Shown here piece by piece: positions 103 to 22,712 of a DNA stretch of 64,000 bases. A program made the position numbers and the translations under genes. Below the pieces are notes generated by a model, which did not search any database, was not told the DNA's origin, and saw only the letters and a program-made list of their open reading frames with translations. Each line of letters begins with the position of its first letter. Within the stretch, counting starts at the first letter, position 1. The stretch covers positions 21,146 to 85,145 of the forward strand of contig JADGFA010000010.1 of assembly GCA_016744065.1 (NCBI GenBank). Reading direction: 5' to 3'. This DNA comes from Gammaproteobacteria bacterium (lineage in GTDB: Bacteria > Pseudomonadota > Gammaproteobacteria > SZUA-229).

Positions 103-2643
103 ATGAACGAAGCGTTAATCCAGCAACAGAACACACCAGACAAAGACCTGTTAGATAAAAACTGGTCTCTTTTTCGCTCAGCGCCTGATCATTATGATAG
201 CCCTGCTGATTTTGACCTGAACACTGAAAATACGACTGAAGCAACTGTACCAGGAACTGTCGCCATGTCAGTTAATGGCACAGCACCACAATGCTGGGCT
301 CCGAATATTGATTATGATGATTACGACTGGTGGTATCACTGCCAGTTTAATTCACCAAAAATAAAATCAGATCAAAAAATTCGCCTTTACTTTGAAGGCC
401 TTGCCACCTTATGTGAGGTCTGGTTAAACGGTGAAAAAATATTAAAATGTAACAATATGTTTCGTGCATACAGCATTGAAATTAACCACCTCCTGACAAC
501 ATCAAATACACTCACACTGGTTTTTCGCTCTATTACACAAAACCTTAAAGAAAAAAGACCTCGGCCAAAATGGAAAACAAAATTAGTTGAAAACCAGCAA
601 ATGCGCTGGATTCGCTCAACCGTTTTAGGCCATGTTTCCGTATGGACGCCTCCCATTAAGGCGGTCGGGCCATGGAAAAACATATACATTGAAACTTCCA
701 GTAGTTTCGATATTGAAGATGTTTTCATTAATACACAGTTAATAAATAACATACCCCAACTAGAACTCTCTGCTACATTAGAAAATCTGAGCCCCGAAAT
801 AAAACTCAACAAAGCAGAGATTAAAATCAATCAGGTTTCATACCCTGTAACAATTTCTAAAAACAAAAACACCTATACACTTAGCTGCAAACTGGCACTT
901 AAATCACTACAGGCATGGATGCCACATACTCACGGCAAACCAAACCTCTATACATCAGAAATTATTATTACAACAGACCAGCAACAAATCATTATTGACA
1001 GCAGAAAAATAGGTTTTAAATCCAGTGAGTTCAGATTTACTGAAAATGAAAGTGCACTCTTAATCAATAACCAGTTAATTTTCTGCCGAGGAACCTGCTG
1101 GACAGTGAGTGATTACCTCTCACTAAATGCAGATTACCATGACCTGAAAAAACATTTAACTCTGTTACGTAATGCCGGTTTAAATATGCTTCGCGTCGGC
1201 GGCACAATGGTATATGAAAGCGATGACTTCTATCAGATCTGTGATGAGCTAGGCATTATGGTATGGCAGGACTTTATGTTTGCCAGCATGGATTACCCCG
1301 TTGAAGACAATGATTTTCTCAACAATGTTCAGGCCGAAGTTACACACCAGTTAAACCGACTGAATAAACATATATGCATTACTACATATTGTGGGAATAC
1401 AGATATTGAAGCTCAGGCAGCGATGTATGGTGTCGCCGAAGAAAACTGGAGCAACTCTTTCTTCCAGGACTATATAGCTGAAAGCTGTAAAAACCAACAC
1501 CCTGGCATACCCTACTTAGCGTCTTCACCTACCGGAGGCACACTACCTTTTCATTTGTCAGAAGGCGTCACCCATTATTGGGGGATTGGTGCCTATATGC
1601 ACCCAATAGGTGATATGGATAAATATCGCGTGCGTTTTGCTTCTGAAGGTATGGGCCTGCCCCATATACCTGAAGACAAAACCATTGAGGAATGCACAGG
1701 CAAAAATACACTTTATCCTTACCACAATGAATGGACATCACGCGTACCAAGAGACCTGGGAGCAGGCTGGGACTTTGATGCTATTCGAGACTTCTACCTT
1801 GAAGAAATATTTAAACTTGATGCTGTTAAATTACGCCGCCAGAACGTAGAAAAATATATTGAATTATCACGGGTCGTCACCGGTGAAGTTATTTCACAGG
1901 TTTTTCAGCAATGGCGCAGCACAAACAGTCAGTGTAACGGTGGCTTAATCTGGTTTAACAGGGACTTCTGGCCGAGTGCAGGCTTTGGCCTGATTGATAG
2001 CAGTAACGCCCCCAAAGCAGCTTATTACCAGTTAAAGCAAAACTGGGCATCACAATCCGTTATTCTTACCAATGAAGGACTTGATGGCGCAGCTGTTAGT
2101 ATTATTAATGAAATGAACGCAGAATTAAACGGCAGCATTAAGGTTATTTTATTAAAAGATAATCACATTATGGTCGCTCAAGCCTCAGAAAAAATTAAAC
2201 TAGCTGCAAATAGCAAACAAAAACACAGTGTCGATAAAATACTCGGGCGCTTTTATGATACGGGCTACGCTTATAAATTTGGACAACCCCAGTTTGATAT
2301 TGTGATTTGTCAGCTAAAGAATGAAGATAAAGAAATAGTCCATGAAACTTTTCTTTTTTTAGAAGATCAAAATATAAAACCCGTTGAGAACATCGAAATA
2401 TCAGCTATAGCAACAATCATAGATAAGCAGAGTATATCCTTAAAAATTATCAGTGATAATTTTTTACAGTATATGAAAATTTCAGTCAAAAACTATCAAC
2501 CAGACGATAACTATTTTCATTTAACACCTGATGTTGAAAAAAATATTATATTAAAACAGATAGAGCCAGACGATAAAAAATTCAGGGGGCAGTTAGATGC
2601 TATAAACCTGAACCATTCAATTAAGATTAAATTACATGACTGA
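103..2643 (+). CDS. Glycoside hydrolase family 2, beta-mannosidase-like
   Basis: 846-aa ORF. Segment LNMLRVGGTMVYESDDFYQICDELGIMVWQDFMFASMDYP matches the conserved beta-mannosidase (GH2) catalytic-region signature (MLRVWGGG..YE ... GILVWQDFMFAC). Length is typical of bacterial beta-mannosidases. Confidence 0.7.
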   Translation: MNEALIQQQNTPDKDLLDKNWSLFRSAPDHYDSPADFDLNTENTTEATVPGTVAMSVNGTAPQCWAPNIDYDDYDWWYHCQFNSPKIKSDQKIRLYFEGLATLCEVWLNGEKILKCNNMFRAYSIEINHLLTTSNTLTLVFRSITQNLKEKRPRPKWKTKLVENQQMRWIRSTVLGHVSVWTPPIKAVGPWKNIYIETSSSFDIEDVFINTQLINNIPQLELSATLENLSPEIKLNKAEIKINQVSYPVTISKNKNTYTLSCKLALKSLQAWMPHTHGKPNLYTSEIIITTDQQQIIIDSRKIGFKSSEFRFTENESALLINNQLIFCRGTCWTVSDYLSLNADYHDLKKHLTLLRNAGLNMLRVGGTMVYESDDFYQICDELGIMVWQDFMFASMDYPVEDNDFLNNVQAEVTHQLNRLNKHICITTYCGNTDIEAQAAMYGVAEENWSNSFFQDYIAESCKNQHPGIPYLASSPTGGTLPFHLSEGVTHYWGIGAYMHPIGDMDKYRVRFASEGMGLPHIPEDKTIEECTGKNTLYPYHNEWTSRVPRDLGAGWDFDAIRDFYLEEIFKLDAVKLRRQNVEKYIELSRVVTGEVISQVFQQWRSTNSQCNGGLIWFNRDFWPSAGFGLIDSSNAPKAAYYQLKQNWASQSVILTNEGLDGAAVSIINEMNAELNGSIKVILLKDNHIMVAQASEKIKLAANSKQKHSVDKILGRFYDTGYAYKFGQPQFDIVICQLKNEDKEIVHETFLFLEDQNIKPVENIEISAIATIIDKQSISLKIISDNFLQYMKISVKNYQPDDNYFHLTPDVEKNIILKQIEPDDKKFRGQLDAINLNHSIKIKLHD

Positions 2644-4459
2644 TACAAACGAAGTCCTTTTTACAGCTGACAATAAACACAGACAGGTTGACTCCATATC
2701 CAGACAGCACCCCTGCTGGCTAAATAAAGACAGTGCTCCTGTTTTCAGCTGGTTACACCTGCCTGAAAGCCAGAGCATTTCAGAAACGGGGATCGTTATC
2801 TGTAATCCTCTTGGTTATGAATACTCACACACACACCGTACCATACGCCATTTAAGTAACAATCTTGCAACAGCCGGTTTTGCCAATATCCGCTTTGATT
2901 ATCATGGCACAGGAGACTCTTTTTCTGATTTATTTGAAGAAAAACGCATAGAAACATTTTTAGAAAACATAGAGTCCGCAATAAACACATTAAAAGAAAA
3001 AACCGGTGTAACTAAAATTTGCCTGATTGGCTTACGACTAGGTGCAACGCTGGCTGCCAGCTTTTGCGAAAAAACATCAGTTGATAAGCTGGTATTGTGG
3101 GCCCCCTGCATTAAAGGTAGAGCCTATGTTAGAGAGATGATAGCCCTTGAAAAACTGGCCTCTCACTCTGCTAATAGCGACGATAATAAAGGCATCATTG
3201 ACAGTGGCGGCTTCATCGTTACTGAAGAAACGGCTGATGAACTTAAAAAAATAAACTTATTAAAACAACAATACCTTGTAAATGACAACATTCTCATTAT
3301 CGAACGCAATGATCTGAAGAAAAATGAAAAATTACTAAACGCTATTGAAAGCAGTAATATAAATAATATAGAACATCATCCGATGACTGGCTATCTCGAA
3401 ATGATGGAAGAACCTCAATTTACTGTTATTCCAGATTCAACTATTAACAAAATAATTAGCTGGCTAAATGAAAACACAGAACAGAAAAAAATAATATCTA
3501 AATACAATACACATAGTTGCAGCCAGATCACATCTAAGCCCGACTCCAGATTAATAGAAGAAATTTGTTATGAAGCAGAAAACAAATTCATGGGTATTAT
3601 AAGCTATCCATCAAACTTCAGGGAAAAACCACCAACTAAACCGCTTATTATTCTTACCAATTCAGGATCTGTTCACCATGTAGGCCCAAACAGACTCTAT
3701 GTTCAACTAGCTCGCTCACTCGCTTTAGAGGGCTACCCTGCATTAAGGTTTGATTTAAGTAATTTAGGCGACAGTGTTTTAGGCAAGCCGGCGAATGAAA
3801 ACGCCCCTTACTCTGAACATGCCATGAAAGATATTGCCTTAATGATTGAATATGCTAAAAAACAATACGGTTTCAGCCAATTTATAATTTCCGGCCTGTG
3901 CTCTGGCGCACACAATGCATTTCATTCATCACTGGATCTGCCCTCTTCTTATAACATTAAAGAAACCATCATCATAAACCCACTTCGATTTTATAGTGAT
4001 AATTTTGCTAATAAAAAAAGAACGCCCAACTACCAGATTGAAAGAGATGCACAGCAATACAGTGAAAGCCTGTTTAGTCTTGAAAAATGGAAAAAATTAT
4101 TTTCTGGGAAAGTCGATTTAATTTATTTATTAGATTTTATTTTCAAAAAAATAAAAAAAATGACCATATCAAATCTACGAGCACTCGCTGAACAACTTAA
4201 CCTTTACAATGGCAGCCGACTGACTAAAGATCTTAAAAAATATGTAGATAAGAATACTAAAATTAGCTTTTTTATTGCATCAAAGGACCCTGGAAAACAA
4301 CTATTAATGAGTGAATCCAAAATAATTGTTAATTCAATGCTTAAATCAAAACAGCTTAAATTATACGAAGTCCCTGACGCCGACCATACATTCTCTTCTT
4401 TAAACTGTAGAAAAGAATTTGTCAGGTTATTTGTAGCGCATATTAAATCAGGCTATTAA
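2636..4459 (+). CDS. Tandem alpha/beta-hydrolase-fold protein (two hydrolase-like domains), function unknown
   Basis: 607-aa ORF overlapping the GH2 stop by 8 bp (translational coupling). Two nucleophile-elbow-like pentapeptides: GLRLG in the N-domain (Arg where Ser is expected) and GLCSG in the C-domain (Cys where Ser is expected). Dienelactone-hydrolase-like arrangement; no signal peptide seen. Confidence 0.5.
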   Translation: MTDTNEVLFTADNKHRQVDSISRQHPCWLNKDSAPVFSWLHLPESQSISETGIVICNPLGYEYSHTHRTIRHLSNNLATAGFANIRFDYHGTGDSFSDLFEEKRIETFLENIESAINTLKEKTGVTKICLIGLRLGATLAASFCEKTSVDKLVLWAPCIKGRAYVREMIALEKLASHSANSDDNKGIIDSGGFIVTEETADELKKINLLKQQYLVNDNILIIERNDLKKNEKLLNAIESSNINNIEHHPMTGYLEMMEEPQFTVIPDSTINKIISWLNENTEQKKIISKYNTHSCSQITSKPDSRLIEEICYEAENKFMGIISYPSNFREKPPTKPLIILTNSGSVHHVGPNRLYVQLARSLALEGYPALRFDLSNLGDSVLGKPANENAPYSEHAMKDIALMIEYAKKQYGFSQFIISGLCSGAHNAFHSSLDLPSSYNIKETIIINPLRFYSDNFANKKRTPNYQIERDAQQYSESLFSLEKWKKLFSGKVDLIYLLDFIFKKIKKMTISNLRALAEQLNLYNGSRLTKDLKKYVDKNTKISFFIASKDPGKQLLMSESKIIVNSMLKSKQLKLYEVPDADHTFSSLNCRKEFVRLFVAHIKSGY

Positions 4460-5495: not shown

Positions 5496-8400
5496 TCAAG
5501 CATTATTAGCAAGGTCATTTTTAAAAACCTCTAATACCGTTGCGCCTGCTTTTTGCAGCTCAGGCAACAGTAATTTAATTTTTTCCAGTTCATTGCGCCT
5601 TGCACATGCTTCCAGCTCAGTCGCTATCCCGCATAACTGAAGGGCACTCACATTTGCCGCCACACCTTTAAGGCCGTGTACAATTTTAGATGACAGATCA
5701 CAGTCACCCGAATCAACCGCTTCCTTTAACTCATTTATACGTTCAGGTACTTCCTCTATAAAAACCTCAATAACGGTTATAAATAACTCTTTATTATTTA
5801 ATAATCGTTCTAATGTATCTTCTTTATCCCAAATTACAACTTCATTAGACTCATCATTACCCTCTTCAGAAACAGGAACATTTTGAGTTTCATTTATTTC
5901 TAAAGATAAAGCTTCGCCTAATTTTTTTAATAATTTTTTGGGATCAATTGGTTTAGATAAATAATCACTCATACCCGCATCCAGACATTTTTCCCTGTCA
6001 CCCTGCATTGCATTGGCTGTCATGGCAAAAATAGGTATATCCTGATAATTTTCACCACACTCTCCTTTGCGAATTTCACGGGTTGTTTCATAACCATCCA
6101 TTTCTGGCATCTGGCAATCCATAAGAATCAGGCTGTACATATCCGTTTCATAAAATGCATTTAAACTTTGTAATGCCTCCAGACCATTATTCGCCACATC
6201 AACAGCCAGACCAAAATCAGCTAATATACCCTGTGCCACCAGTTGATTTACATGGTTATCTTCCACTAGTAATATGCGTGTATTTTCTGGCCAGTGATAA
6301 TTTGTTTTTTCTTTTTCATCATCATGTGTAAATGTTTGCAAGTACTCATGGGTAACCAGAGGCCTGTCATTCTGCAAAGTTGATCCATCAGCAATAACAA
6401 CGGCCAATGCATTAAACAAATCTGAAGTAGTGGCGGGTTTGGGAAAATAAGCACTGAAACCTATATTTTTAAATCTATTTACATCGTCCTGAAAGCCCAT
6501 TGAGGTCATCATGACCAGCTTCATGTCACTAAAACGTTTATCTGAAATAAATATTTCACCTAATGCTTCGCCATCCATCTCTGGCATTTGCATATCAAGA
6601 AATGCAATATCAAAAACATTCTTTCCATTATTATCTATTTTTTCATTACATATCTGTAAAGCCTGCTTAGCGCTATGTGCCTCAACAACCGTTGCTCCCC
6701 AGTGCTCTAACTGCCCCCTCAAAACCTCACAGTTTGTAACATTATCATCCACTATTAATAAACTTAACTTATTTATATCAATTTTTGGAATAACCCGTTT
6801 TGACTGGCTGCTTTTTTCTAATTGAATATAAAACGTAAAAGTACTACCTTTACCCTTTACACTCTTGGCGCTAATATCACCTCCCATCAAAATACATAAT
6901 TTTCTAGCGATAGCCAGGCCCAGGCCTGTTCCTCCATACTTACGGGTTGTTGACGCATCGACCTGACTAAATGAATCAAACAAAGCAGGTAACTTGTCTT
7001 CTGGTATTCCTATACCTGTATCGCTTATATTAAACTCTACTGTTAACTGCTCATCACCATTTTCCCGTATTTCCACCTGGACAACTATTTCTCCAGTAGA
7101 TGTAAATTTAACCGCATTACCAACCAGGTTAGTTAACACCTGCCTTAAACGACTAGGGTCACCTCTTACCATTGACTGCTCTACTTTTGTTACATCCAGA
7201 ACAAGCTCTAACCCTTTTGACTGTGCAGTGTAAGCCATAGACTCGGCAAACTCACCTAACATACCACGGATATTAAAATCAATAATTTCAAGATCTAATT
7301 TATTTGCTTCAATTTTAGAAAAGTCTAAAATATCATTTATTAATGTCAGTAATGCCTGACCACTAGACTGGGCAACTTTCACCCGATGCAACTGATCACT
7401 ATCAAGCCTTGTATTTAATAATAAGCTCAACATACCAAGCACACCATTCATAGGCGTACGAATTTCATGACTCATACTGGCAAGAAATTCACTTTTGGCT
7501 ACAACAGCCTGCTCTGCTTTTTTAATTGACTCTATAAGCGCCAGTTCAGTCTGTTTCTGGTTTGTAATATCGGTACGAATAGCAATATAACTTTCAGGCT
7601 TACCCTGCTCGTTCATATATGGAACAATGGTCGTGTCAACCCAATAGAAATCACCACTTTTTGCTTTATTACAAATTTCTGAATGAAAAACGTCCCCATT
7701 TGTCAATTGATTATACATATCCTTAAAAAATGCTTTATCGTGTTTACCCGACTTAAGTAAACGATGGTTTTGTCCTATAAGCTCATCTCTTGTATAACCA
7801 GAAATATTTTCAAATAGATCATTTACAAAAGTAATTGTCCCTTTTACATCTGTAATGGCAACGATGGAATGCTGATCAAGTGCAAATTTTTGTTGATTTA
7901 AATCTTTCAGTGCTTTAACTATTTTATCTTTACTTAACTCTAATTTTTTTTCATGCTCACGGCGAACTTTCAACATATAATTAAAAGCATCAGCAAGTTT
8001 ACCTAATTCATTATTTGATTTAATATCAACGATTTCATCAGTCTGGCCTGATGCAACTTTATTACTCACCTTAACAAGAGCATATATAGGACGAAGGATA
8101 CTATACGACTTATAATATGCCATTAAAACAATGACTATGAGACTGATAAACACGCTGATTACTTGCATTTTTGCCAGTTCATTAATAGAAGAAAAAGCTT
8201 TTTCTGACTCAACTTCACTAACTAAAATCCAGTTAATATTTTTTATTTTAATTGGCTTACGAACACCTATTAGCTTTTTATTATTTTTCCCGATATACTC
8301 ATGCGGATTAAAATCCTCTTCTTCATTATTTTCAGCTTCAACATTGTGATTAAGCACCATATCCATGCTACCACCATACATAGAGCTTCTTAATTCTCCT

Positions 8401-9206
8401 TCATTCGTTATTAAGTATTGATGTAAAACACTTACATCAAATTCATCTGAAACTTTTTTCCCTCCTGATAAACCTAATACATCTAATACACCTGATACAC
8501 CTAATACATCCGATACATCTGATAAATTATCAAATATAACATCAAGTTTTATCTGTATTGCAAAGACACCTGATTTTTCACCTGAACTATTTAATATAGG
8601 CGATGTTATAAAAGCGGTTAACAGGTTATTCGAGGGCTGATAACGCTCAATACCTGAAAAAGCATCTTCGCCTGTTTCCAGTGTATATTTTACAGCCTGT
8701 GAAAATTTGGTACTGGAATATGTGCCTGTAAATAAATTGCTACCCAGATCAGATTCCTGTTCCACGCTGTACAATATATTCCCATCATTATCAATCAGCA
8801 CCAGATCATATACATAACTATAACGACGGCTAAATAAAGCCAGATCATTTCTATTTTCTTTTATACGTTTTATCCAGTCGTCACTTTTTATATAATCCGA
8901 TAAACTTTTTTTACTTTTATAAAAACCGTCAGATAATTCTTCTAATAAAATCAAATTATTTTGAGATTCAGCCTGGCTATTTAAATCTGTAAATCGATAA
9001 AAAAACCAGTTTTCAATAAATTTAGCACTCAGGCTGGAGGAGTGCATGAGTTTATCGATTGCAGAGGATTTCAGACTTACCCCCGCCTGTTGATACTCAA
9101 GCCACGACACAATAATAACAGGCATAAGACCTATTAATAAATAAGATAGAATCAACCCATTTCTGAGTGAACCATACCTCTTTTTCTTCTGATGAAATTT
9201 ATTCAC
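5496..9206 (-). CDS. Hybrid sensor histidine kinase (TM, Cache-like periplasmic domain, TM, PAS, HisKA, HATPase, REC, REC, Hpt)
   Basis: 1236 aa. Two TM segments flank a ~300-aa periplasmic region. H-box SHEIRTPMNGVLGM; G-boxes GTGLGLAIARKL. Two receiver domains (LIVDDNVTN...DMQMPEMDG and ILLVEDNHVNQ...DCQMPEMDG). C-terminal Hpt motif HGLKGVAANV. Confidence 0.85.
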   Translation of the reverse strand: MNKFHQKKKRYGSLRNGLILSYLLIGLMPVIIVSWLEYQQAGVSLKSSAIDKLMHSSSLSAKFIENWFFYRFTDLNSQAESQNNLILLEELSDGFYKSKKSLSDYIKSDDWIKRIKENRNDLALFSRRYSYVYDLVLIDNDGNILYSVEQESDLGSNLFTGTYSSTKFSQAVKYTLETGEDAFSGIERYQPSNNLLTAFITSPILNSSGEKSGVFAIQIKLDVIFDNLSDVSDVLGVSGVLDVLGLSGGKKVSDEFDVSVLHQYLITNEGELRSSMYGGSMDMVLNHNVEAENNEEEDFNPHEYIGKNNKKLIGVRKPIKIKNINWILVSEVESEKAFSSINELAKMQVISVFISLIVIVLMAYYKSYSILRPIYALVKVSNKVASGQTDEIVDIKSNNELGKLADAFNYMLKVRREHEKKLELSKDKIVKALKDLNQQKFALDQHSIVAITDVKGTITFVNDLFENISGYTRDELIGQNHRLLKSGKHDKAFFKDMYNQLTNGDVFHSEICNKAKSGDFYWVDTTIVPYMNEQGKPESYIAIRTDITNQKQTELALIESIKKAEQAVVAKSEFLASMSHEIRTPMNGVLGMLSLLLNTRLDSDQLHRVKVAQSSGQALLTLINDILDFSKIEANKLDLEIIDFNIRGMLGEFAESMAYTAQSKGLELVLDVTKVEQSMVRGDPSRLRQVLTNLVGNAVKFTSTGEIVVQVEIRENGDEQLTVEFNISDTGIGIPEDKLPALFDSFSQVDASTTRKYGGTGLGLAIARKLCILMGGDISAKSVKGKGSTFTFYIQLEKSSQSKRVIPKIDINKLSLLIVDDNVTNCEVLRGQLEHWGATVVEAHSAKQALQICNEKIDNNGKNVFDIAFLDMQMPEMDGEALGEIFISDKRFSDMKLVMMTSMGFQDDVNRFKNIGFSAYFPKPATTSDLFNALAVVIADGSTLQNDRPLVTHEYLQTFTHDDEKEKTNYHWPENTRILLVEDNHVNQLVAQGILADFGLAVDVANNGLEALQSLNAFYETDMYSLILMDCQMPEMDGYETTREIRKGECGENYQDIPIFAMTANAMQGDREKCLDAGMSDYLSKPIDPKKLLKKLGEALSLEINETQNVPVSEEGNDESNEVVIWDKEDTLERLLNNKELFITVIEVFIEEVPERINELKEAVDSGDCDLSSKIVHGLKGVAANVSALQLCGIATELEACARRNELEKIKLLLPELQKAGATVLEVFKNDLANNA

Positions 9207-11822: not shown

Positions 11823-14162
11823 ATGCGTAAATCAAAAAAAATATTGCACTCACGATGGCCTCTTTTACTACAGGTAACATTATCATTATCTGTAGTATTA
11901 ATTTTAGTAAGCCTGTTAACTGCCTACCTGACTTTTCACATCGTGAGTGATTTTGAATTTAACCGTGCAAAAGAAAAAAACATTAGCTCTCTTTCATTAT
12001 TATCAGCCACAGCAATTGATGCTGTAATCACCGAAGACATACCATTACTCAACACTATAGCAACACAAACATTAAAGCAGTCCCCGCAAATACATAGCCT
12101 TATTATAGAAAATGAGCAGGGAAAAAGAATGGTTCAACAAAGCCAGAATGATATTACACCTGATAACATGCTGCGCACTTATAGTCATAGTATTATTTTT
12201 GAAAATGAAAATTTTGGTTCCATTATTATGCAAATGGACATAAGGCCTATAAAAAAACAGATTAATAACCAGGTAACCCGTGTACAGATTTTTGTTATAT
12301 CTATTCTTTTAACGCTAACAGCGCTTATTGTAATATTGATCCACTGGCTAACTATTCGGCCTATTCGCATTATTATTCGTTACCTTAATTCTATATCTGA
12401 AAGCCAGCAACAATTACCGTTACGACTCTCTATATCCGCCAGTCGTGAACTGGAACTACTGGCCTCATCAGCCAGCGAACTATCAGAGATGATGTTACAA
12501 CGTTATCAACGTGAAAAAGAATTATTACAGACACGTGAAGAATTAATCGAAGCACACAATGAGGCCTTAAGTGCGAGTCGAGCAAAATCTGGATTTTTAG
12601 CGGCTATGAGCCATGAAATTCGCACACCCATGAATGCCGTACTGGGTATACTTGGATTACTCAGAGACACTGCTCTGGATAAACACCAGAAGCAATTGGT
12701 ACGCACAGGACGTGACTCAGGTGAATTACTGTTAACCATTATCAATGACATTCTTGATTTCTCAAAAATGGAGGCCGATAAATTACAACTGGAACAAAGT
12801 GGCTTTGACCTGCACCGCCTACTGACACATAGCGCTGAATTACTCCGACATCAGGCTGACCGAAAAGGCCTGGCGCTCATTCTACGCCTTGAACCTGTAC
12901 CCGACCTGCCGCGTTATGTTAAAGGTGACCCGGATAGACTCCGCCAGATATTAATTAACCTGATTAACAATGCAATTAAGTTTACCCCAAATGGCACTAT
13001 TACAATCAGCGCTTCAGCCACTACACTTAATTATGACAAACTAACCGCTAATGAAGAAACCTTTATTCTTAGTTGTTCCGTACAGGATACGGGGATTGGC
13101 ATCCCCGAAGACCTTCAGTATTCCCTGTTTGAAGAATTTACAATGGCAGATCAGAGCCATTCAAGAAACCATGAAGGCACTGGCCTCGGACTTGCCATAT
13201 GTAAACGTCTTGTTACATTAATGGATGGCAATATAGAGTGTTGTAGCGAACTTGGAAAAGGCAGTAATTTTGTTTTTGCTATCGAGCTTAAAACAGCCAC
13301 TGAGGAAGAATGCAGCGACCGATTTTCCATAGACGAACCACAATTAATTCCCGACAGTAATACGCGTATCCTGCTCGCTGAAGACAATCCGGCTAACCAG
13401 ATGGTGATTAAAAATATCCTTGAATATGCGGGCCTGCAAGTTGATATAGTCGCTAATGGCCGTGAAGCCGTTGAGGCCATTCGTAGCCTGCCCTATGACA
13501 TTATACTAATGGATATTTCCATGCCTGAAATGGATGGTATGACGGCTACCCGTGAAATACGCAAACTTCCCGGTGAAAAAGGTAAGCTGGCAATTGTTGC
13601 CCTGACCGCCCATGCTTTATCTGGTGATCGAGAACGCTTTATTCAGGCAGGTATGGATGATTACCTGAGCAAACCCATTGATAAAAAAGCAACCCTGCAC
13701 TGTATTGCTAGCTGGACAAATAAAAAAATTAATAAAAACCCTGAAATGACGGCTCCCATAAATCAAAATGAAGCACCTGCTAGCGATATTAGCAAAGATG
13801 AGCAGTACGAATATGTAGATGAACAGGTACTACAACAGCTTATACACGACACTGATGCAGAAATTGTGCCTGAGCTATTAACACTCTACATTGTTGATGC
13901 AAAAAAACGCAGTCAATTAATAAAACGGGCCTTTGAAGAAAAAGATATAAGAACCCTGGAATTTGAATCACATACACTGGGTAGTAGTGCAGCAGCACAT
14001 GGAAATGAAAAGTTACACCGGCAATCACGAGCTATTGAACACCTCTGTCAGGAAGGAAATCATCAGCAAGCTCTACAACAAACTGCTACATTACTTAGTA
14101 TTGCAGATGAATCTTTTCGCCTACTGACACTTCGTGTTAACAAAGGATTTAATAATGAGTGA
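11823..14162 (+). CDS. Hybrid sensor histidine kinase (2 TM, short periplasmic loop, HisKA, HATPase, REC, Hpt)
   Basis: 779 aa. H-box SHEIRTPMNAVLGILGLL; N/G boxes ...NNAIKFT, DTGIGIP, GTGLGLAICKRL. Receiver domain ILLAEDNPANQ...DISMPEMDG...KPI. C-terminal Hpt-like segment (ESHTLGSSAAAHG). Confidence 0.85.
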   Translation: MRKSKKILHSRWPLLLQVTLSLSVVLILVSLLTAYLTFHIVSDFEFNRAKEKNISSLSLLSATAIDAVITEDIPLLNTIATQTLKQSPQIHSLIIENEQGKRMVQQSQNDITPDNMLRTYSHSIIFENENFGSIIMQMDIRPIKKQINNQVTRVQIFVISILLTLTALIVILIHWLTIRPIRIIIRYLNSISESQQQLPLRLSISASRELELLASSASELSEMMLQRYQREKELLQTREELIEAHNEALSASRAKSGFLAAMSHEIRTPMNAVLGILGLLRDTALDKHQKQLVRTGRDSGELLLTIINDILDFSKMEADKLQLEQSGFDLHRLLTHSAELLRHQADRKGLALILRLEPVPDLPRYVKGDPDRLRQILINLINNAIKFTPNGTITISASATTLNYDKLTANEETFILSCSVQDTGIGIPEDLQYSLFEEFTMADQSHSRNHEGTGLGLAICKRLVTLMDGNIECCSELGKGSNFVFAIELKTATEEECSDRFSIDEPQLIPDSNTRILLAEDNPANQMVIKNILEYAGLQVDIVANGREAVEAIRSLPYDIILMDISMPEMDGMTATREIRKLPGEKGKLAIVALTAHALSGDRERFIQAGMDDYLSKPIDKKATLHCIASWTNKKINKNPEMTAPINQNEAPASDISKDEQYEYVDEQVLQQLIHDTDAEIVPELLTLYIVDAKKRSQLIKRAFEEKDIRTLEFESHTLGSSAAAHGNEKLHRQSRAIEHLCQEGNHQQALQQTATLLSIADESFRLLTLRVNKGFNNE

Positions 14163-15582
14163 TAAACCCAGCGTACTTCTCGTTGAAGATGCCGCACCTC
14201 AGGCACTGCTTTATCAACAATACCTCAAAGATGAATTAATCGATCTTGAACACGTGGACACAGGTGAAAAAGCAAAACAGTTCATTGCCTCAAACCCGCC
14301 TGAACTCATTTTACTTGATCTTAAACTACCTGATATGGATGGACAGGATATATTACACTGGATAAAAAAAGAGAAATTTCCCTGCTCTATAATTATTATC
14401 ACCGGCAACAGTTCAGTTGATATCGCAGTAGAAGTAATGCAAATAGGAGCAAATGACTTTTTAGAAAAACCTTTCAGCGCTAACCGCTTAAGAACAACAA
14501 TAAAAAATCAACTTAATCAAACACGACTACGCCACCTGGTCGATGACTACCAGGTAACATTTAAACGTAAAAGCTACCATGGCTTTATCGGTTCCTGCCT
14601 GCCCATGCAGGCTGTTTATCGAATTATCGATGCTGCTGCCACCAGTAAAGCAACCGTTTTCATAACCGGCGAAAGCGGAACAGGAAAAGAGGTATGTGCA
14701 GAAGCGATTCACAGACAGGGGCCTCGTTCAGATAAAAAATTCATTGCACTAAACTGCGGCGCAATCCCCCATGACCTAATGGAAAGCGAAATATTTGGAC
14801 ATGTCAAAGGTGCATTTACCGGGGCTTCCAGTGAACGAAAAGGCGCTGCAACATTAGCTGATGGCGGCACTTTATTTCTTGATGAAATAGGTGAGATGGA
14901 TATGGAATTGCAGACAAAGCTATTAAGATTCATTCAATCCAGTAGTTTTCAGAAAGTAGGTGGTAATAAACAGGAAAGTGTCGACATCCGTTTCATCTGC
15001 GCCACAAACCGTGATCCTTTAGAAGCGGTAACAACGGGTAAACTTAGAGAAGATTTATATTATCGTTTGCATGTCGTACCACTACACCTACCTCCCTTAA
15101 GAGAGCGCGGTAATGATATAATGGAAATCGCCCAACAATTTCTCATTACGTATGCAAAAGAAGAAAACAGATTATTCAGCGGATTTACCAACGAAGCAGA
15201 AAGCACCTTAAACAATTATAACTGGCCTGGAAATGTACGTCAGTTACAAAATGTCATTCGAAATATCACTGTATTACACAACGATAAGCGTGTTACGCAG
15301 GCCCACCTTCCCCCGCCACTTAATAACTCACAAAACATACCTGAAGCACCACCACAATCTCCGACAACACAGCCCTCAACAGAGCAAGCCGAGATAGAAA
15401 TGATAGAACAACCCACTATACCTGCGCCGGATCAGGAAAAACAGACAATAAGACCACTAGCAGATGTAGAGCGTGAAACCATAGAACGAGCCATTACTCT
15501 CTGTGACGGTAACATTCCTAAAGCAGCAGCTCTGTTAGATGTTAGCCCATCGACCATTTATCGAAAAAAACAGGGCTGGTAA
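14155..15582 (+). CDS. Sigma-54-dependent response regulator, NtrC family (REC, AAA+ sigma54-interaction, Fis-type HTH)
   Basis: Start chosen at ATG 14155 ([13 protein letters not shown]), which overlaps the upstream kinase stop (ATGAGTGA). Walker A GESGTGKE; ESELFGH and GAFTGA motif; C-terminal HTH ([15 protein letters not shown]). Confidence 0.85.
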
Positions 15583-15874: not shown

Positions 15875-18800
15875 ATGAGTGACAATAAAGCTACAGGGCA
15901 GTTTCCATTCCCAGGCGCTGCCGTTATATTACTCGCCCTCGGAGTATTCATATATACAGAAAATCCTTTTCAAACAACTCGTCCTGATGTTTCAAATAAC
16001 TTAACAACAAACACTGAAAGCGTACGCGCCAGATTATGGCAAGATCCATTTGAAGCAGTTCAACTGCATAAAGATATAAATCACAGTAACAATTCAGAAA
16101 ATATTAATAATGAAAATCACAATCATACAGAATGCTACATTGTTAATAATGAAATCATAAAAAACAAAGACAAGATAAATATTACAGCTATTAAAGAAGA
16201 CAAAAACACCTCTTTAATTACATCAACCCATGATTTCAATGACTTACACTGCAATATATTACAGAACATTAAATCAGAAACACAAAGTAATAAAAAGCAC
16301 TATGACTTACATGTAATTGCGGTCATGGTCACTGGTGGCCCTTACGCTGAAGATAAAGAACTTCGCATCAGGAGTCGCTATGCACTCACAACAGGTATCA
16401 TGAGTACTGGGTACAACCCTGTTGATTCTGAACATATAGGCTATATCGACTTTTCAAAACCGTGCATAAAACCCAACCTGTCAAACGCTTCCTCCAGACA
16501 CTCCAGCTATTGCGACTGGCCTGCCGTTATACCCTACGAGTACTTTAACCTTTCAAGCACAGGGGAAAACTGGAGTGACTCCCGTTTTTCTAAAAATATT
16601 CTAGTACTATGGTTAGATGATGAAATAATATCAAAAAACAAACCATTAGACATGTTATCAAAAATACAAGACTCTCTAACACAGAACATGAACAACAACA
16701 AACTGCTAATAACTAACAACAATACAGTTAAAAACAAAGAAAACATATCCTTAAAATTTGATGTTATTGGCCCCGCCAGCTCAACAACACTGGTAAAAAT
16801 GTACAAAAACTTAAACCAGAAATGCAATAAAATGAATGATAATTGTTCACCTGTAAAAGAGAAATACGGTGACCAGAATAAAATAAGAATATTTTCCCCC
16901 AGAGCCACATTAGACAACAAAGCAATAACACGAATAATCAACAAAAGCACATTAAGCGACAATAATGAATATAGCAATCTGAACTTTCCAGGCTTTCATC
17001 GCACAATTTCAACAGACTCACTTCTTGTAGACAGCTTACTTTGTGAAATGCTCAGAAGAGGTGTTAATCCATTCCATAAAAAAGAGTATGTTACCAATGA
17101 AAATCAAAAAATAAGTCGTATTGGTAACACCGAATGCACAGACTATTCACTATCTAAACTTAACACAAACAATAAAAATGATTATATTGCCCTGATTGGA
17201 GAGTGGGACACAACCTACTCAAGAAACTTCGAAAGATTATTCAGGGAAAAAATAATACATCAAATATGCCAAAAAAAGCCCGAAACTAACCAGCAGGCAT
17301 GTAAAGATGAGTTAAACCATAAAACAAAAAAGAGCAAACTGACAGAAAATTTTGACTGGTTATATAGCTTTAACTATTTACGCGGGCTGGATGGAGAAAT
17401 TTCAAAAAATAATGGAAATTTTATTTCATCAAAAAATAATTATGAAAAAGATAAAGATAAAAAAACATTAAGAAGATCTGCCGGCGCCAACCAGTTTGAT
17501 TACTTAAGGAGACTGGCCAAACAGATAAAAAAACTATCTGAGTCAAAAAACAACATAGGAACAGTTAGAGCAATAGGTATAGTTGGTAGCGATACATATG
17601 ATAAATTATTAATTCTTCAGGCATTAAGAGCCCATTTCCCTGATGTATTATTTTTTACAACTGATCTCGACGCAAGAATGCTCCATCAATCAGAAAACGA
17701 ATTCACAAGAAACCTTATTGTTGCATCTGCTTTTGGATTAACACCTGATCCGAAAAGCAGTGGTTACATATACCACGGCCTTGCATTTAGAGACAGCTAC
17801 CAAACATCTCTGTACAATACAGTACAAAAAACAGTCAACAACAATACTAATAAAAGCACATCCTCTTTTGACCTTATTTCACCTGTAAAAATATTTGAAA
17901 TTGGTAATAAATCCGCTATTGATTACACCCATAACAACAACCCAGATAGTCACAATAAAAATATAAAACCACTGTATATATTTTTATCAGTTAGTCTGAT
18001 TATACTGCTTCTCTTACAGTCTAATAATGCAGCTAGAATATATATTTTTACTATCTCTATAATCACATACTCAGTTCTATATTGGGCAAGCCTGTATAAC
18101 TTACCTGGTAATACAGAATTTCACTTCATGCTATCAGGAACCAGTGTGTGGCCTGCTTACATAATAAGAATGACGGCAGCTATAAGCGCCATAGTATCTA
18201 TTATTTATACAATAATCGCACTAAAAATAAATGCATTTAATATTATCGAAAAAAATAAATTGTCAGATGAGATACGTATTACACCAAAAAAATATTTTAT
18301 AAAAAAAATAAAAGAAACAGGAAATAATCATATAAAAAAATACTTATCGACTATTCTGTATTATTTTAAATGGCATTTAACCTGTGATTGTTACAATAAA
18401 AAAACGATAGAGAATAGAAAACTTAAAAAGCCGTGCTTCATTGCGCATATTCTAATTACCACCTGGGGCTGGAAAGACAGTAAATTTGATAAAATAAACC
18501 TGGATAATATATTTTATCAATATATATACCTGTCTAAGCCTCTATCGCGCCTGTCAAGAGTTACAGTAATATCAATTTTATACCTTATAATTTCAATGGG
18601 AATATTAAGCTCTTTTCCCAATATGCCAGTAACACCTTTTGTAGGAAAAATCAGTGCCGATGCCAGCTCTACAATATTATTTTCTTTATTAATACCCTAT
18701 GTTTTTCTGATTTTTTTAGTCTCTGATGTCACTCGGTTAAATTTACGCTTTGTAGAATTACTGTCTAAATATAATGTTATATGGCCTGATAGTATATTAA

Positions 18801-19327
18801 ATGCATATTGTGATAAATATGGGCTTAGTAAAAAAATAGCCATTGAAAAACTAAAACTTGATATTATTGTAAAAAGATCAAAAATTGTTGATAAATTAAT
18901 ATTTTTGCCTTTTATAATTCTCACCCTGATGATACTTTCAAGAAGCAATTACTTTGACAGGTGGGACATGCCACCTCAATTAGCTTTTATTATTTTACTA
19001 GGTGCATGTGTTGCACTTAGCAGCGCTATCAGACTTAGACGATCTGCTAGAAAAGCACGCTTTTATGCTTTAAAAAACCTTAATAAAATCTATAAAAATA
19101 TGATATATACTGAAACCAAACCTAAAAGCGATAAAGATATTCATGGCACCGATTACAGCTTAAAACTACCAGAACGCTTAAAATTAATAATAAGTGACAT
19201 TGAAAACATTTCAACTGGTCCTTTTGCTCCTATCACTAAACACCCTATAATTTCTGCGGTCGCCTTACCATTTGGTGGAGTTGGTAGCCTTTATATCATT
19301 GAATATTTATCTAAAATAAATTTATAA
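15875..19327 (+). CDS. Large Asn/Lys-rich membrane protein: N-terminal signal anchor, periplasmic type-I PBP (ANF-receptor/Venus-flytrap-like) domain, 7-8 C-terminal TM helices; function unknown
   Basis: 1150-aa ORF in a very AT-rich segment. N-terminal hydrophobic segment AAVILLALGVFIY. Motifs HVIAVMVTGGPY, FDVIGPASSTTLVKM, YIALIGEWDTTYS and RAIGIVGSDTYDKLLILQALRAHFPDVLFFTTD resemble type-I periplasmic-binding-protein beta-strand/helix signatures (the VIGPxSS hallmark). After ~aa 690 there are at least seven strongly hydrophobic helices. No kinase, GGDEF or other output domain recognisable. Confidence 0.5.
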   Translation: MSDNKATGQFPFPGAAVILLALGVFIYTENPFQTTRPDVSNNLTTNTESVRARLWQDPFEAVQLHKDINHSNNSENINNENHNHTECYIVNNEIIKNKDKINITAIKEDKNTSLITSTHDFNDLHCNILQNIKSETQSNKKHYDLHVIAVMVTGGPYAEDKELRIRSRYALTTGIMSTGYNPVDSEHIGYIDFSKPCIKPNLSNASSRHSSYCDWPAVIPYEYFNLSSTGENWSDSRFSKNILVLWLDDEIISKNKPLDMLSKIQDSLTQNMNNNKLLITNNNTVKNKENISLKFDVIGPASSTTLVKMYKNLNQKCNKMNDNCSPVKEKYGDQNKIRIFSPRATLDNKAITRIINKSTLSDNNEYSNLNFPGFHRTISTDSLLVDSLLCEMLRRGVNPFHKKEYVTNENQKISRIGNTECTDYSLSKLNTNNKNDYIALIGEWDTTYSRNFERLFREKIIHQICQKKPETNQQACKDELNHKTKKSKLTENFDWLYSFNYLRGLDGEISKNNGNFISSKNNYEKDKDKKTLRRSAGANQFDYLRRLAKQIKKLSESKNNIGTVRAIGIVGSDTYDKLLILQALRAHFPDVLFFTTDLDARMLHQSENEFTRNLIVASAFGLTPDPKSSGYIYHGLAFRDSYQTSLYNTVQKTVNNNTNKSTSSFDLISPVKIFEIGNKSAIDYTHNNNPDSHNKNIKPLYIFLSVSLIILLLLQSNNAARIYIFTISIITYSVLYWASLYNLPGNTEFHFMLSGTSVWPAYIIRMTAAISAIVSIIYTIIALKINAFNIIEKNKLSDEIRITPKKYFIKKIKETGNNHIKKYLSTILYYFKWHLTCDCYNKKTIENRKLKKPCFIAHILITTWGWKDSKFDKINLDNIFYQYIYLSKPLSRLSRVTVISILYLIISMGILSSFPNMPVTPFVGKISADASSTILFSLLIPYVFLIFLVSDVTRLNLRFVELLSKYNVIWPDSILNAYCDKYGLSKKIAIEKLKLDIIVKRSKIVDKLIFLPFIILTLMILSRSNYFDRWDMPPQLAFIILLGACVALSSAIRLRRSARKARFYALKNLNKIYKNMIYTETKPKSDKDIHGTDYSLKLPERLKLIISDIENISTGPFAPITKHPIISAVALPFGGVGSLYIIEYLSKINL

Positions 19328-19415: not shown

Positions 19416-20714
19416 TCACTCACTTTTTAACTTATCCATCAATAACTCAATTTCATGTACTAGCTCAGGACTATCCCATTCTATTGCTGCGTTAACACCG
19501 TATTTTATCTTGCCATCTATTCCTATTAAAAAAGTAGAGGGATAAGTAATCACATTCCATTTTTTTGCAAAATCACCATTATTATCTAACAGCACGGGAT
19601 ACTCGACATTCACTCGATTCATAAATTCAACAATTTTAGATTTATCTTCTGCGTAATTTATTGAAACCAGCTCAAATGGCAAGCCCTTCATTTTATTTTT
19701 CAAACGATTTAAAGAAGGTATTTCCTCTACACAGGGTGCACACCAGGTCGCCCAAAAATTAACCAGGGTTACCTGATTTTTAAAATTTTGTTTATGGAAA
19801 TCACGGCCAGACACATCAGTTAAATTTATAGAAGCAGGCGTTTTATTACCTTTAAACTCTCTAAGATAAATATCAATACCAGAATCCTTTGCTCTATACT
19901 CCTTTAAAGGTATCGCAGCTTCAGGTAATTTATGCCTGTCTAAAACACCTATCATCTTTATAACATTACCAGGTAAGGACTTAATTAATTTCAACATTAA
20001 ATCGGATGGCTCTTCCTTATGAAACAGGCTCATCACATCCGGCATAGATTTAGTATAAACAGGGTTATTATTTTTTCTCAATAATTCAAGTAACAGGTCG
20101 AACTGTCCTATTGCACCACTTTTTTTTGCCTGATATATCATAAGAGGAATATTAGTAGAAGACACTACAGGCATATATTCAGGCGCCAACCCCAATGAAG
20201 GAATATAGGCGTAAGCATAAGGTGAAAAAAGAATCGCCCCAACCAGGTTCGCTTTAATCTTTATTTTTTCCTGCCATTGATGGGCACCAATCAATGCCGC
20301 TAAAGCGCCATAAGAATCCCCCACAACAACAATCTTTTTACCTGTTTTCCGGTGTGCGTACTCAATTACATCCGCAATATAATGGCCATCCAATAACCTT
20401 AAAGGCCCTGGCCCTCTAAGCATAAACAAAGAAGAAATTATATCTGCCTGCCAGACCTCTACACCCAAATCAGATAATGACTGGGAAAATAAAGAATGAG
20501 ACTTACGAAAACCATACTCTGGTGGCAACCAGACAACTAAATATTCACCTTTGGCTGGGAAAGTTTCAACTGTAATCTCTGAATCATCTGTTGCAACAAT
20601 ACTAATTTCATCAGCATATCCAGATTTACCCAAAAAAAGCAAAAAACTAATGGCAATATAAAAACCTGTTAATACAATTTTACTCATAACACCCCACATC
20701 AAGAGAACAACCAC
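19416..20714 (-). CDS. Exported fusion protein: alpha/beta-hydrolase (GDSYG nucleophile elbow) + C-terminal TlpA/ResA-like thioredoxin-fold (WCAPC) domain
   Basis: 432 aa with signal peptide. Hydrolase motif VVVGDSYGALAA (GxSxG). C-terminal VTLVNFWATWCAPCVEEIPSLNRL is a classic TlpA/redoxin CxxC segment. Confidence 0.65.
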   Translation of the reverse strand: MVVLLMWGVMSKIVLTGFYIAISFLLFLGKSGYADEISIVATDDSEITVETFPAKGEYLVVWLPPEYGFRKSHSLFSQSLSDLGVEVWQADIISSLFMLRGPGPLRLLDGHYIADVIEYAHRKTGKKIVVVGDSYGALAALIGAHQWQEKIKIKANLVGAILFSPYAYAYIPSLGLAPEYMPVVSSTNIPLMIYQAKKSGAIGQFDLLLELLRKNNNPVYTKSMPDVMSLFHKEEPSDLMLKLIKSLPGNVIKMIGVLDRHKLPEAAIPLKEYRAKDSGIDIYLREFKGNKTPASINLTDVSGRDFHKQNFKNQVTLVNFWATWCAPCVEEIPSLNRLKNKMKGLPFELVSINYAEDKSKIVEFMNRVNVEYPVLLDNNGDFAKKWNVITYPSTFLIGIDGKIKYGVNAAIEWDSPELVHEIELLMDKLKSE

Positions 20715-20734: not shown

Positions 20735-21709
20735 TTACTTACGCCAGCTAACATCATATTCATGCACTTCATCTACCACTTTAACTGATACAATATCATT
20801 ACTTACACCCATTTCAAAACGATTCCAATAGGTTGAAGAACGCTGTATTACAATAGCGGCTGATAGCTCACCTTTAATTTCTACATTTTTTTGATACGAT
20901 TTTAATGATTCGCAATAATAGGCATTACAAATATCAGAACGCAACTCCCTGGTTAATGCACACCCAGTTACTGTTTGATTAATACATGAATTTATAACCG
21001 ACTCATGAGGTATTTTATTAATATACATTTCTAATAATTCTTCTGGTAAAACGTCAGGATTTTCATCCATATAACGTCGAACAGAAAAAACAGACAGGTA
21101 AGCATGCTCTTTACCCGATGCACAACAGCCACCTTTACACATACAGCATAATCGATCACTTATTGCCTTCAGTGCAGGCATGGCATCAAACTTTTTTTCA
21201 ATATATAAATGCTTATCATAAGCATGGTAATGTTCATCATGCTCAATCTCAGAAGCATTATTATATGTACAGGCTTCTTCAACAATAAAAACCAGATGCG
21301 TTATATAACGCTCTCTACGCTCATCAGTAATAACTAACTGTGCCGAATCACCTGAAGGTATTGTTAATAAAAACGTATTATTATCTGATAATTTCAGATT
21401 TTCATCAAAAATAGCCTGCTGAATATTAAACGACTCCTGCATTTCTTTATGCTTTATTTCATCAAGGTGTTTTCTTTTTGCAATACTTCTCTCACGCTGC
21501 TTAATTATAAGCTTTCGATTAAAATCAAGATGTGACCTGAACATATAATGATTCATGCTCGACTTTTTTTTCATAACCCGCCGGCAATCAGGTGAACGAC
21601 AAACCGAATAACCAATATCAATATAATTCAATCTGTCAATATGCGGTAATAGTGCATCACAGACTTCACATTTTGATTTATCATTATGGGTGTAAATATC
21701 CAGCGACAT
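20735..21709 (-). CDS. Cysteine-rich hypothetical protein (N-terminal CxxC...CxxxxC zinc-ribbon-like pairs; C-terminal CCMCKGGCC cluster)
   Basis: 324 aa. N-terminal CEVCDALL and CRSPDCRR pairs. C-terminal LCCMCKGGCCASGKEH cluster (reminiscent of the YkgJ-type CxxCxxCC metal-binding motif, but not identical), plus further Cys residues (CINQTVTGCALT..CNAYYCES). No homolog I can name. Confidence 0.4.
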   Translation of the reverse strand: MSLDIYTHNDKSKCEVCDALLPHIDRLNYIDIGYSVCRSPDCRRVMKKKSSMNHYMFRSHLDFNRKLIIKQRERSIAKRKHLDEIKHKEMQESFNIQQAIFDENLKLSDNNTFLLTIPSGDSAQLVITDERRERYITHLVFIVEEACTYNNASEIEHDEHYHAYDKHLYIEKKFDAMPALKAISDRLCCMCKGGCCASGKEHAYLSVFSVRRYMDENPDVLPEELLEMYINKIPHESVINSCINQTVTGCALTRELRSDICNAYYCESLKSYQKNVEIKGELSAAIVIQRSSTYWNRFEMGVSNDIVSVKVVDEVHEYDVSWRK

Positions 21710-21827: not shown

Positions 21828-22712
21828 CTAACTTAAAGCCTTTAATGCAGCAATACGTTCCTCTAATGGAGGATGACTCATAAACAGCTTACGTAAACCG
21901 TTTGATACACTGGCATTAATACCAAATGCGGCCAGTTGATCAGGCATATGAGCAGGACGATGTATATTCTGCAATCGCTGCAATGCAGCAATCATTTTTT
22001 CTGTTCCTGCTAAATGAGCAGCACCCGCATCTGCCCGAAACTCACGGCGCCGAGAAAAATACATAACAATAGAACTCGCCAATATACCAAAAAAAATTTG
22101 TGCCACAATACTGGTAATGTAATAAGCGGGCCCATAACCCCTTTGCGTTTTAAACACGACCCTGTCGACCACATGACCAACAACGCGAGAAAAAAAGATA
22201 ACAAATGTATTAACTATACCCTGAACCAAAGCCAGAGTAACCATATCACCATTAGCAATATGACTAATTTCATGGGCAAGTACGGCCTCTACTTCATTTT
22301 GCTGCATATTCGCTAATAAACCTGAACTTACAGCCACCAGAGCCGCATTTTTATTCATGCCTGTAGCAAATGCATTAACATCAGCCGAGTCAAAAATGGC
22401 AACTTCTGGCATTTTGATAGCTGATTGTTGGGCCTGCTTTTCCACAGTCTGCAATAGCCAGCTTTGAGTCCTGTCTCCAGGCCGTGTAATCACCACCGCA
22501 CCCATTAATTTTTTAGCTGACCATCTGGACATTGCTAATGAAATGAATGACCCCGACATACCAATGACGGCAGACATAATTAACAAGGCCTCAAGATTTA
22601 AATCAACCCCATTTTCAGCAAGCGTTGACTCCAGCCCTAAAAGACTAAATACCAGACTAATAATCACCATCACAGCAATATTAGTTAACAAAAACAGACC
22701 AATACGTAACAT
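21828..22712 (-). CDS. htpX: Zinc metalloprotease HtpX (M48 family)
   Basis: 294 aa with N-terminal TM helices. HExxH motif in VLAHEISHIANGDM. Overall HtpX layout. Confidence 0.85.
   Translation of the reverse strand: MLRIGLFLLTNIAVMVIISLVFSLLGLESTLAENGVDLNLEALLIMSAVIGMSGSFISLAMSRWSAKKLMGAVVITRPGDRTQSWLLQTVEKQAQQSAIKMPEVAIFDSADVNAFATGMNKNAALVAVSSGLLANMQQNEVEAVLAHEISHIANGDMVTLALVQGIVNTFVIFFSRVVGHVVDRVVFKTQRGYGPAYYITSIVAQIFFGILASSIVMYFSRRREFRADAGAAHLAGTEKMIAALQRLQNIHRPAHMPDQLAAFGINASVSNGLRKLFMSHPPLEERIAALKALS

Follow-up and report, generated by a model that had tools for sequence, protein, structure and literature searches.

A TlpA-like reductase domain paired with an unannotated alpha/beta-hydrolase-fold module in a gammaproteobacterium and its relatives

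A two-domain gene and its product

TlpA-type thiol-disulfide reductases are known by the company they keep, taking their specificity from clients as varied as apocytochrome c, ScoI and CoxB, MsrAB and spore proteins. Here we examine a gene in which a domain of this type is joined to a second module that bears no annotation of its own. It lies in a 64-kb stretch of contig JADGFA010000010.1 from a Gammaproteobacteria bacterium (hereafter ‘the window’, meaning the whole of the DNA analysed), as a single open reading frame (ORF) whose features are collected in Table 1; residue numbers count throughout from the GTG start. A first-pass annotation of this DNA had read the ORF as one secreted polypeptide bearing both a GDSYG and a WCAPC motif. 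Both motifs do indeed lie in the one uninterrupted frame, with its start refined: the likelier initiation codon is the ATG at 20687 (M10), where the homologs begin in alignment and which has a GGGG purine run 6-9 nt upstream, giving a protein of 423 amino acids (aa). The database version of the same protein (P0001) starts at M6 and has 427 aa.

Judged by eye, the product looks like a soluble periplasmic protein exported behind a cleavable Sec signal peptide. The hydrophobic core of the putative peptide has a mean Kyte-Doolittle value of about 2, and the homologs likewise carry a hydrophobic N-terminus that ends in small-x-Ala followed by Glu or Asp. Beyond the predicted cleavage site come a module of the alpha/beta-hydrolase fold (hereafter the N-domain), a linker of 23 residues, and a thioredoxin-fold domain that holds C325 and C328, the only cysteines of the ORF. 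A scan for promoters and terminators was uninformative, with 22 sites against 16.5 expected.

Table 1. Coordinates of the two-domain gene and of the features within it (positions in the window)
Feature	Position	Strand	Remarks
Whole ORF	19416..20714	minus	Uninterrupted; 432 aa from GTG; stop codon 19416-19418
Putative Sec-type signal peptide, MSKIVLTGFYIAISFLLFLGKSGYA	20613..20687	minus	By inspection; predicted cleavage before DEIS
Alpha/beta-hydrolase-fold domain, aa 35-262	19929..20612	minus	Cys-free; conserved triad absent; unannotated family
Vestigial nucleophile elbow, G132-D-S134-Y-G136 (GDSYG)	20307..20321	minus	
Interdomain linker, aa 263-285	19860..19928	minus	pLDDT falls to about 62 at residues 271-280
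TlpA/ResA/CcmG-like thioredoxin-fold domain, aa 286-432	19419..19859	minus	
Redox-active site, W324-C325-A-P-C328 (WCAPC)	19731..19745	minus	Followed by invariant E331

A reductase domain with no named equivalent

The C-terminal half had been assigned to the TlpA/ResA type, and Pfam, NCBIfam and structural matches bear this out, at scores below the cutoff of any named equivalog. Pfam places Redoxin (E 2e-22), AhpC-TSA and Thioredoxin_8 over aa 288-408. The top NCBIfam matches are ResA, StoA, DsbE and TlpA, every one of them far under its curated cutoff: 87.7 against 170 for ResA (NF002854), 74.4 against 210 for StoA (NF041202), 68.2 against 230 for TlpA (NF047696) and, for DsbE/CcmG, 68.1 against 123 (TIGR00385) and 41.6 against 359 (NF011941). 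Searches of the PDB by sequence and by structure returned TlpA-like reductases (3kcm, ResA, TlpA, CcmG, StoA and Etrx2), and the domain has the thioredoxin fold with the TlpA-type insertion. C325, C328, E331 and P392 are present in all members of the close clade, by which we mean 121 sequences of at least 54% identity, as distinct from the wider family, an alignment of 133 cluster representatives. E331 lies three residues past the second cysteine and the cis-Pro candidate P392 inside YPSTF; from sequence position and knowledge of the family we take the former to correspond to Glu80 of ResA and the latter to the cis-Pro. The C-terminal part is thus a genuine TlpA-like reductase-type domain, orthologous to no named member of the family and not a peroxiredoxin.

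Could it nevertheless be an ordinary counterpart of CcmG or ResA, serving apocytochrome c reduction, or of TlpA, serving ScoI/CoxB CuA assembly, with the N-domain merely replacing the membrane anchor? These proteins are its top matches in sequence and structure, and the CxxC pair, the Glu three residues later and a cis-Pro-type loop are all in place; but it scores far below every curated equivalog and subfamily cutoff, and the subfamily has a C-terminal signature of its own, [IL]EWD..[EDQ] (IEWDxPE), which occurs at 18 of 32 loci with the fused gene, at five of seven loci where the two domains are split between genes (see below) and at none of 52 generic TlpA-like loci. Moreover, ccm, res/ccs, sco and cox genes are not conserved neighbours at the 30 fused and seven split loci surveyed, and two paralogs share one contig of a metagenome-assembled genome (MAG; loci L002 and L017), which would be unusual for a housekeeping maturation factor. 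We regard such an equivalence as improbable. Set beside the established TlpA-like family (B. japonicum TlpA, B. subtilis ResA and StoA, CcmG/DsbE; PDB 1jfu, 1st9, 3erw, 1kng, 3kcm), whose usual members have an N-terminal membrane anchor, the window protein differs in being, by inspection, soluble with a cleavable signal peptide, in its IEWDxPE signature and alpha/beta-fold module of ~230 aa, and in lying outside ccm, res and sco clusters.

A periplasmic thiol peroxidase of the peroxiredoxin kind, fused to the hydrolase-fold domain, was also among the first suggestions made for this gene, and we hold it to be very improbable. Matches to the AhpC-TSA and Redoxin models are routine for TlpA-like proteins, and the NCBIfam thiol peroxidase model reaches only E 0.002; ResA, TlpA and CcmG outrank the peroxiredoxins by both sequence and structure. 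The active site itself is W-C-x-P-C with a ResA-type Glu three residues after the second cysteine, and in NFWATWCAPC the Thr lies two, not three, residues before the first cysteine, so that the peroxidatic motif Pxxx(T/S)xxC is absent.

A hydrolase fold without a conserved triad

At the level of the fold the N-domain is an alpha/beta-hydrolase, with an eight-stranded, mostly parallel sheet of canonical connectivity and an elbow after strand b5. The structures nearest to it belong to active hydrolases and thioesterases (GrgF, DcsB and dienelactone hydrolases). Taken alone, it gathers 301 cluster representatives (50% identity) in an exhaustive HMMER search, a family for which there is no Pfam model. 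For the window protein, Pfam Abhydrolase_3 reaches 13.7 bits (E 0.054), short of its cutoff of 25, and no NCBIfam hydrolase model matches; the N-domain profile finds nothing significant among PDB sequences (the best is a dienelactone hydrolase, E 0.12), and a few distant family members reach Abhydrolase_6 or Hydrolase_4. Because hhalign gave no alignment between the N-domain profile and a canonical BioH-like hydrolase from locus L004 (probability 0.2%), the mapping of triad positions that follows rests on the topology of the model.

From dienelactone-hydrolase-like enzymes and other small esterases and thioesterases of the fold (PDB 2o2g, 1din, 6lzh GrgF, 7d78 DcsB), to which its identity is only 10-15%, the N-domain differs at each catalytic position, the nucleophile being unconserved (Gly, Ser or Asp), the acid replaced by Gln and the His by Tyr or Phe, and in its coupling to a thioredoxin domain. 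The elbow consensus is GDSYA in the close clade, where the position of G136 is Ala in 107 of 121 sequences, and x-G-R-G-A in the wider family. Position 134 is Ser in 119 of the close sequences and Ala in two (P0081 and P0083, from independent contigs, P0083 standing for 6 contigs), while the wider family has Gly in 57 members, Ser in 26, Asp in 26, Glu in 8 and Ala in 7. At the acid position after b7, where the window protein has Q195, Gln is shared by 120 of the 121 close sequences and by 112 of the 133 distant ones, and neither Asp nor Glu was found in the loop aa 196-201 of the window protein. The His position after b8 is filled by Tyr in 116 of the close sequences and by His in four, and by Tyr (51), Phe (28) or His (15) in the wider family. 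The canonical serine hydrolase seen at first pass therefore does not survive a look for its Asp and His partners, which are missing at the family level, the window’s own His232 being one of the four exceptions in its clade.

A weaker form of the hydrolase idea deserves a fairer hearing. In the window’s own clade the N-domain could be an active esterase or thioesterase whose Ser134 is served by non-canonical partners (H73 and E66, or H232 in this protein), the hydrolase and the reductase acting in sequence on one substrate, for instance a thioester- or disulfide-linked envelope or sulfur compound. In its favour, S134 occupies the true nucleophile elbow in the model, and 119 of 121 sequences retain it, as 120 retain D133, together with Y135, E66, R70, H73, Q148 and Q195; the nearest structures are active enzymes, some distant members match hydrolase models, and NCBI gives the name ‘alpha/beta fold hydrolase’. 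Against it stand the Ala134 of P0081 and P0083, the GDAYA elbow of the nearest 50%-identity cluster representative, the mostly non-Ser wider family, the Gln and Tyr/Phe at the acid and His positions, and the failure of Ser134 and His232 to co-occur (His is present in 5 of 26 Ser-bearing and 9 of 57 Gly-bearing members), besides the sub-threshold Pfam match and the lack of any significant profile match to a solved hydrolase. Such a bifunctional enzyme, although the chief rival to the account that we favour below, seems to us rather unlikely. The redox-coupled or redox-protected esterase of the first-pass annotation fares no better, as the only cysteines are the CxxC pair and the N-domain is free of Cys in 31 of 31 close homologs (and in 109 of 133 distant ones).

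The conserved residues of the N-domain (W62, G68, W88, D91, Q148, G159, P165, P172, G175, Q195 and the post-b8 loop) map to what was once the active-site face, in the loops after b3, b4, b6, b7 and b8, and the elbow residue covaries with the post-b8 loop, R135 accompanying D229 and Y135 accompanying Ser or Gly at 229. Conservation and covariation together point to a maintained, coevolving pocket or surface and not to a dead scaffold. On our reading the N-domain has kept a dienelactone-hydrolase-like fold, whereas the Ser-Asp-His triad has been lost, or was never conserved, at the level of the family. It adds a bacterial case of the alpha/beta-hydrolase fold apparently re-used without its catalytic triad.

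Fused or adjacent: two parts of one unit

The window protein has more than 1,300 homologs. The best 120 of them, from independent assemblies and sources, are all continuous two-domain ORFs of 402-457 aa with thioredoxin-type Pfam domains and 90-99% query coverage, and two metagenome contigs that were assembled independently encode the identical protein. That the fusion might be an assembly or frameshift artefact of two genes can accordingly be given negligible probability. Split versions of both genes do occur in other genomes, but they differ in kind, the second gene having a signal peptide where the fused form has its linker. The single gene of the first-pass annotation thus stands, and the search in relatives that it recommended finds fused and split forms side by side.

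Among the best 150 representatives of the N-domain family, 85 have a thioredoxin domain and 38 are of standalone length. WCxxC is present in those 85, that is, in all the fused ones. About a third of the N-domain family is standalone; these proteins are 250-275 aa long, bring their own signal peptides and end in natural C-termini. In seven of seven contexts (L087-L093), which span two subfamilies and include Thiohalobacter thiocyanaticus and a betaproteobacterial Sulfuricella MAG, the standalone gene is followed directly by a same-strand gene for a Redoxin/TlpA-like protein of 164-181 aa. The called stop and start codons overlap in five of the seven (ATGA, as read in L087), abut in L090 and are 3 nt apart in L092; the Thiohalobacter pair at L087 occupies 6001-6762 and 6759-7259. 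The partners translated from L087-L089 each have a signal peptide of their own, NFWATxCxPCxxExPS and PTTF, with IEWDxPE in L087 and L088, and that of L087 is 37% identical to the C-terminal domain of the window protein (E 4e-43).

The interdomain linker sits where the split versions end their first gene and begin the signal peptide of their second, so that in the fused form it stands in place of that second signal peptide. Its boundaries agree with the ends of the standalone proteins and with the mature N-termini of the partner thioredoxins, and the alignment of the two forms begins with LREFKG matched to LMEYRG. Within one subfamily fused and split forms interleave at similar identity, and repeated fusion or fission must therefore have taken place. 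As a reverse control, the hidden Markov model of the N-domain finds a match at 31 of 32 fused-type loci and all seven split ones, and at none of the 52 generic TlpA-like loci. Because the two parts are paired, whether fused or encoded by adjacent genes, in every context examined, the alpha/beta-fold module and this TlpA-like subfamily stand in a Rosetta-stone relationship and make up a single unit, in evolution as in function. The two-domain model has a pTM of 0.76, which softly suggests a defined arrangement of the domains as well.

Distribution and present annotation

Full-length loci from reference genomes all belong to Gammaproteobacteria of sulfur-oxidiser-type lineages, and relatives are also found in Thioalkalivibrio, Thiohalobacter, Sulfuricella and chemosynthetic symbionts. 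The overall phyletic pattern further takes in Ectothiorhodospiraceae, Chromatiales, Thiotrichaceae, Thioalkalispiraceae, Sulfuriflexus, Thiohalomonadales, Halothiobacillus, and symbionts of lucinids and siboglinids. The genome scan used an alignment of close relatives, and its query-biased search patterns skew the loci towards such relatives; within a sample so biased, the distribution is suggestive of a sulfur-related role. A MAG contig, CALNYZ010000044.1, carries two paralogous fused copies (L002 at 548-566 kb and L017 at 807-820 kb), 54% and 43% identical to the window protein respectively; two or more of these modules can thus coexist in one genome.

A search of the literature found no description of this architecture, and the databases give little hint of it. 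For fused relatives the sources offer no label beyond ‘TlpA family protein disulfide reductase’ or ‘thiol-disulfide isomerase/thioredoxin’, and a standalone member is the one that NCBI names ‘alpha/beta fold hydrolase’. Present annotations thereby conceal the two halves of one unit, and the N-domain deserves a family definition. A standalone homolog of the N-domain from Thiohalobacter thiocyanaticus (P0341) is labelled ‘primosomal protein’ in both NCBI and UniRef; since the ortholog in a sister strain goes by ‘alpha/beta fold hydrolase’, the label is almost certainly wrong.

A proposed function

How might the two halves work together? The account that we favour, and on balance think probable, is that of an exported TlpA-type disulfide reductase which owes its specificity to a dedicated partner, the Cys-free, degenerate alpha/beta-hydrolase-fold module, through the binding of a client or ligand. 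The C-terminal W-C-x-P-C site would act on a specific client outside the cytoplasm, reducing a disulfide or related oxidised sulfur adduct that the client carries. It would presumably be re-reduced in turn by a membrane electron transporter of the DsbD/CcdA type, by analogy with the characterised members of the TlpA family, all of which are re-reduced by such transporters. The N-domain would most likely be a non-catalytic or non-canonical binding module, its former active-site face holding the client or ligand and presenting it to the CxxC site. We infer the reductive direction and the electron donor, as we do the part played by the N-domain in binding and a stable interface between the two domains.

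Several observations weigh against this proposal. The analysis yielded no client, ligand or electron donor, no conserved operon partner appears at the 30 fused loci, and a survey of the 64-kb window found no DsbD/CcdA gene. The clade to which the protein belongs keeps Ser134 (119 of 121) along with invariant E66, R70, H73 and Q148, and the window protein itself bears His232 at the canonical His position.

A more specific proposal would make the pair a dedicated periplasmic system of sulfur-oxidising Proteobacteria, in which the pocket binds a sulfur-carrying client (for example an organic polysulfide, or a carrier protein with a persulfide, polysulfide or thiol adduct) and the CxxC site reductively releases or reactivates it, by analogy with what has been suggested for SoxS/SoxW with SoxYZ. 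The phyletic pattern, drawn from the query-biased scan described above, would fit; the gene neighbourhood lends it no support, the 64-kb window having neither sox nor dsr genes and its remainder being housekeeping. In this specific form we think the idea quite unlikely.

Covalent pairing of a TlpA-like domain with another module is not without parallel. Among multidomain proteins of the periplasm or of a lumen, Neisseria PilB (Trx-MsrA-MsrB; PDB 2h30/2jzr) likewise joins a TlpA-like domain to the module that it serves, and plant SOQ1 and human NHLRC2 (Trx-NHL; PDB 7djj/6gc1) have one fused to a partner; the thioredoxin domains of all three are among the matches of our sequence and structure searches. 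The partner in PilB is a known enzyme whose own cysteines must be supplied with reducing equivalents, whereas that of the window protein is Cys-free, has no recognisable catalytic site and comes first in the chain, with the thioredoxin domain last. The fusion as such amounts to ordinary domain shuffling; what offers a concrete, testable lead is how consistently the reductase is paired with an unannotated family that resembles a pseudo-hydrolase. A whole TlpA-like subfamily comes with an undescribed partner module of its own, fused to it or encoded immediately upstream, and this pairing offers a way into the search for a new reductive pathway of the periplasm in sulfur-oxidising bacteria and symbionts of environmental importance.

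The genomic neighbourhood

Upstream of the two-domain gene lies an ORF for a Cys-rich protein (20735..21709), co-directional with it on the minus strand, and beyond that ORF htpX (21828..22712; NCBIfam HtpX, E 1e-126). The first-pass annotation had noted both, placing the Cys-rich gene 20 bp away and reading the arrangement as an envelope-stress or redox theme. The shared direction is as described, and the gap is 20 nt if measured from the GTG and 47 nt from the likelier ATG. The Cys-rich protein has 324 aa, a motif CCMCKGGCCASGKEHAY and N-terminal CxxC...CxxxxC pairs, and matches nothing in Pfam or NCBIfam. In the closest relative of the window gene, from a Galathealinum endosymbiont (L001; 71% identity), a protein 57% identical to it is encoded in the same position (6834-7802). 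The htpX gene is where it was said to be, but the theme does not extend to the family: the Cys-rich gene and htpX neighbourhood is limited to the window and L001, and the genes upstream elsewhere are unrelated. We accordingly rejected the Cys-rich gene as a functional partner characteristic of the family; the 419-aa upstream gene of L002, for one, is unrelated to it. A trxB gene 11 kb away was likewise set aside as evidence of a link, being part of the usual trxB-ftsK-lolA-rarA block.

No conserved neighbour was found across the 30 fused loci. Those met most often are GGDEF-EAL proteins, at 7 of the 30 loci, and two-component regulators; both families are high-copy. GGDEF-EAL or PAS-GGDEF proteins adjoin fused genes at L008, L009, L012, L016, L023, L024 and L029 and split pairs at four of seven loci (L087-L090), an enrichment that is uncertain. 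Downstream of the split pair and convergent with it, five of the seven loci (L088, L089, L090, L092 and L093) have a gene for an oxygen-dependent coproporphyrinogen oxidase (PF01218), usually accompanied by purE and a gene of the Sua5/YciO/YrdC family. The arrangement may simply reflect synteny among related genomes, or it may hint at a link to haem or cytochrome metabolism.

Other features of the window

On the other side of the two-domain gene, and convergent with it, a plus-strand ORF at 15875-19327 encodes a protein of 1,150 aa, rich in Asn and Lys and with several hydrophobic segments. It matches nothing in Pfam or NCBIfam, is also called on the source metagenome contig, and sits where the GC content of the window is lowest (0.32-0.34, compared with about 0.40 elsewhere). 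Upstream of this ORF are two loci for hybrid sensor kinases. One, at 11823-15582 on the plus strand, pairs the kinase with a LuxO-like sigma-54 response regulator (NCBIfam LuxO E 1e-189, under the cutoff), and the other, at 5496-9206 on the minus strand, encodes a second hybrid kinase of 1,236 aa; together with the LuxO-like regulator the kinases may form a phosphorelay of the quorum-sensing type. A protein of 607 aa encoded at 2636-4459 on the plus strand has tandem matches, below cutoffs, to exosortase-A-associated hydrolases 1 and 2 (TIGR03100 and TIGR03101), and appears to join in one chain two alpha/beta-hydrolases that usually have separate genes.

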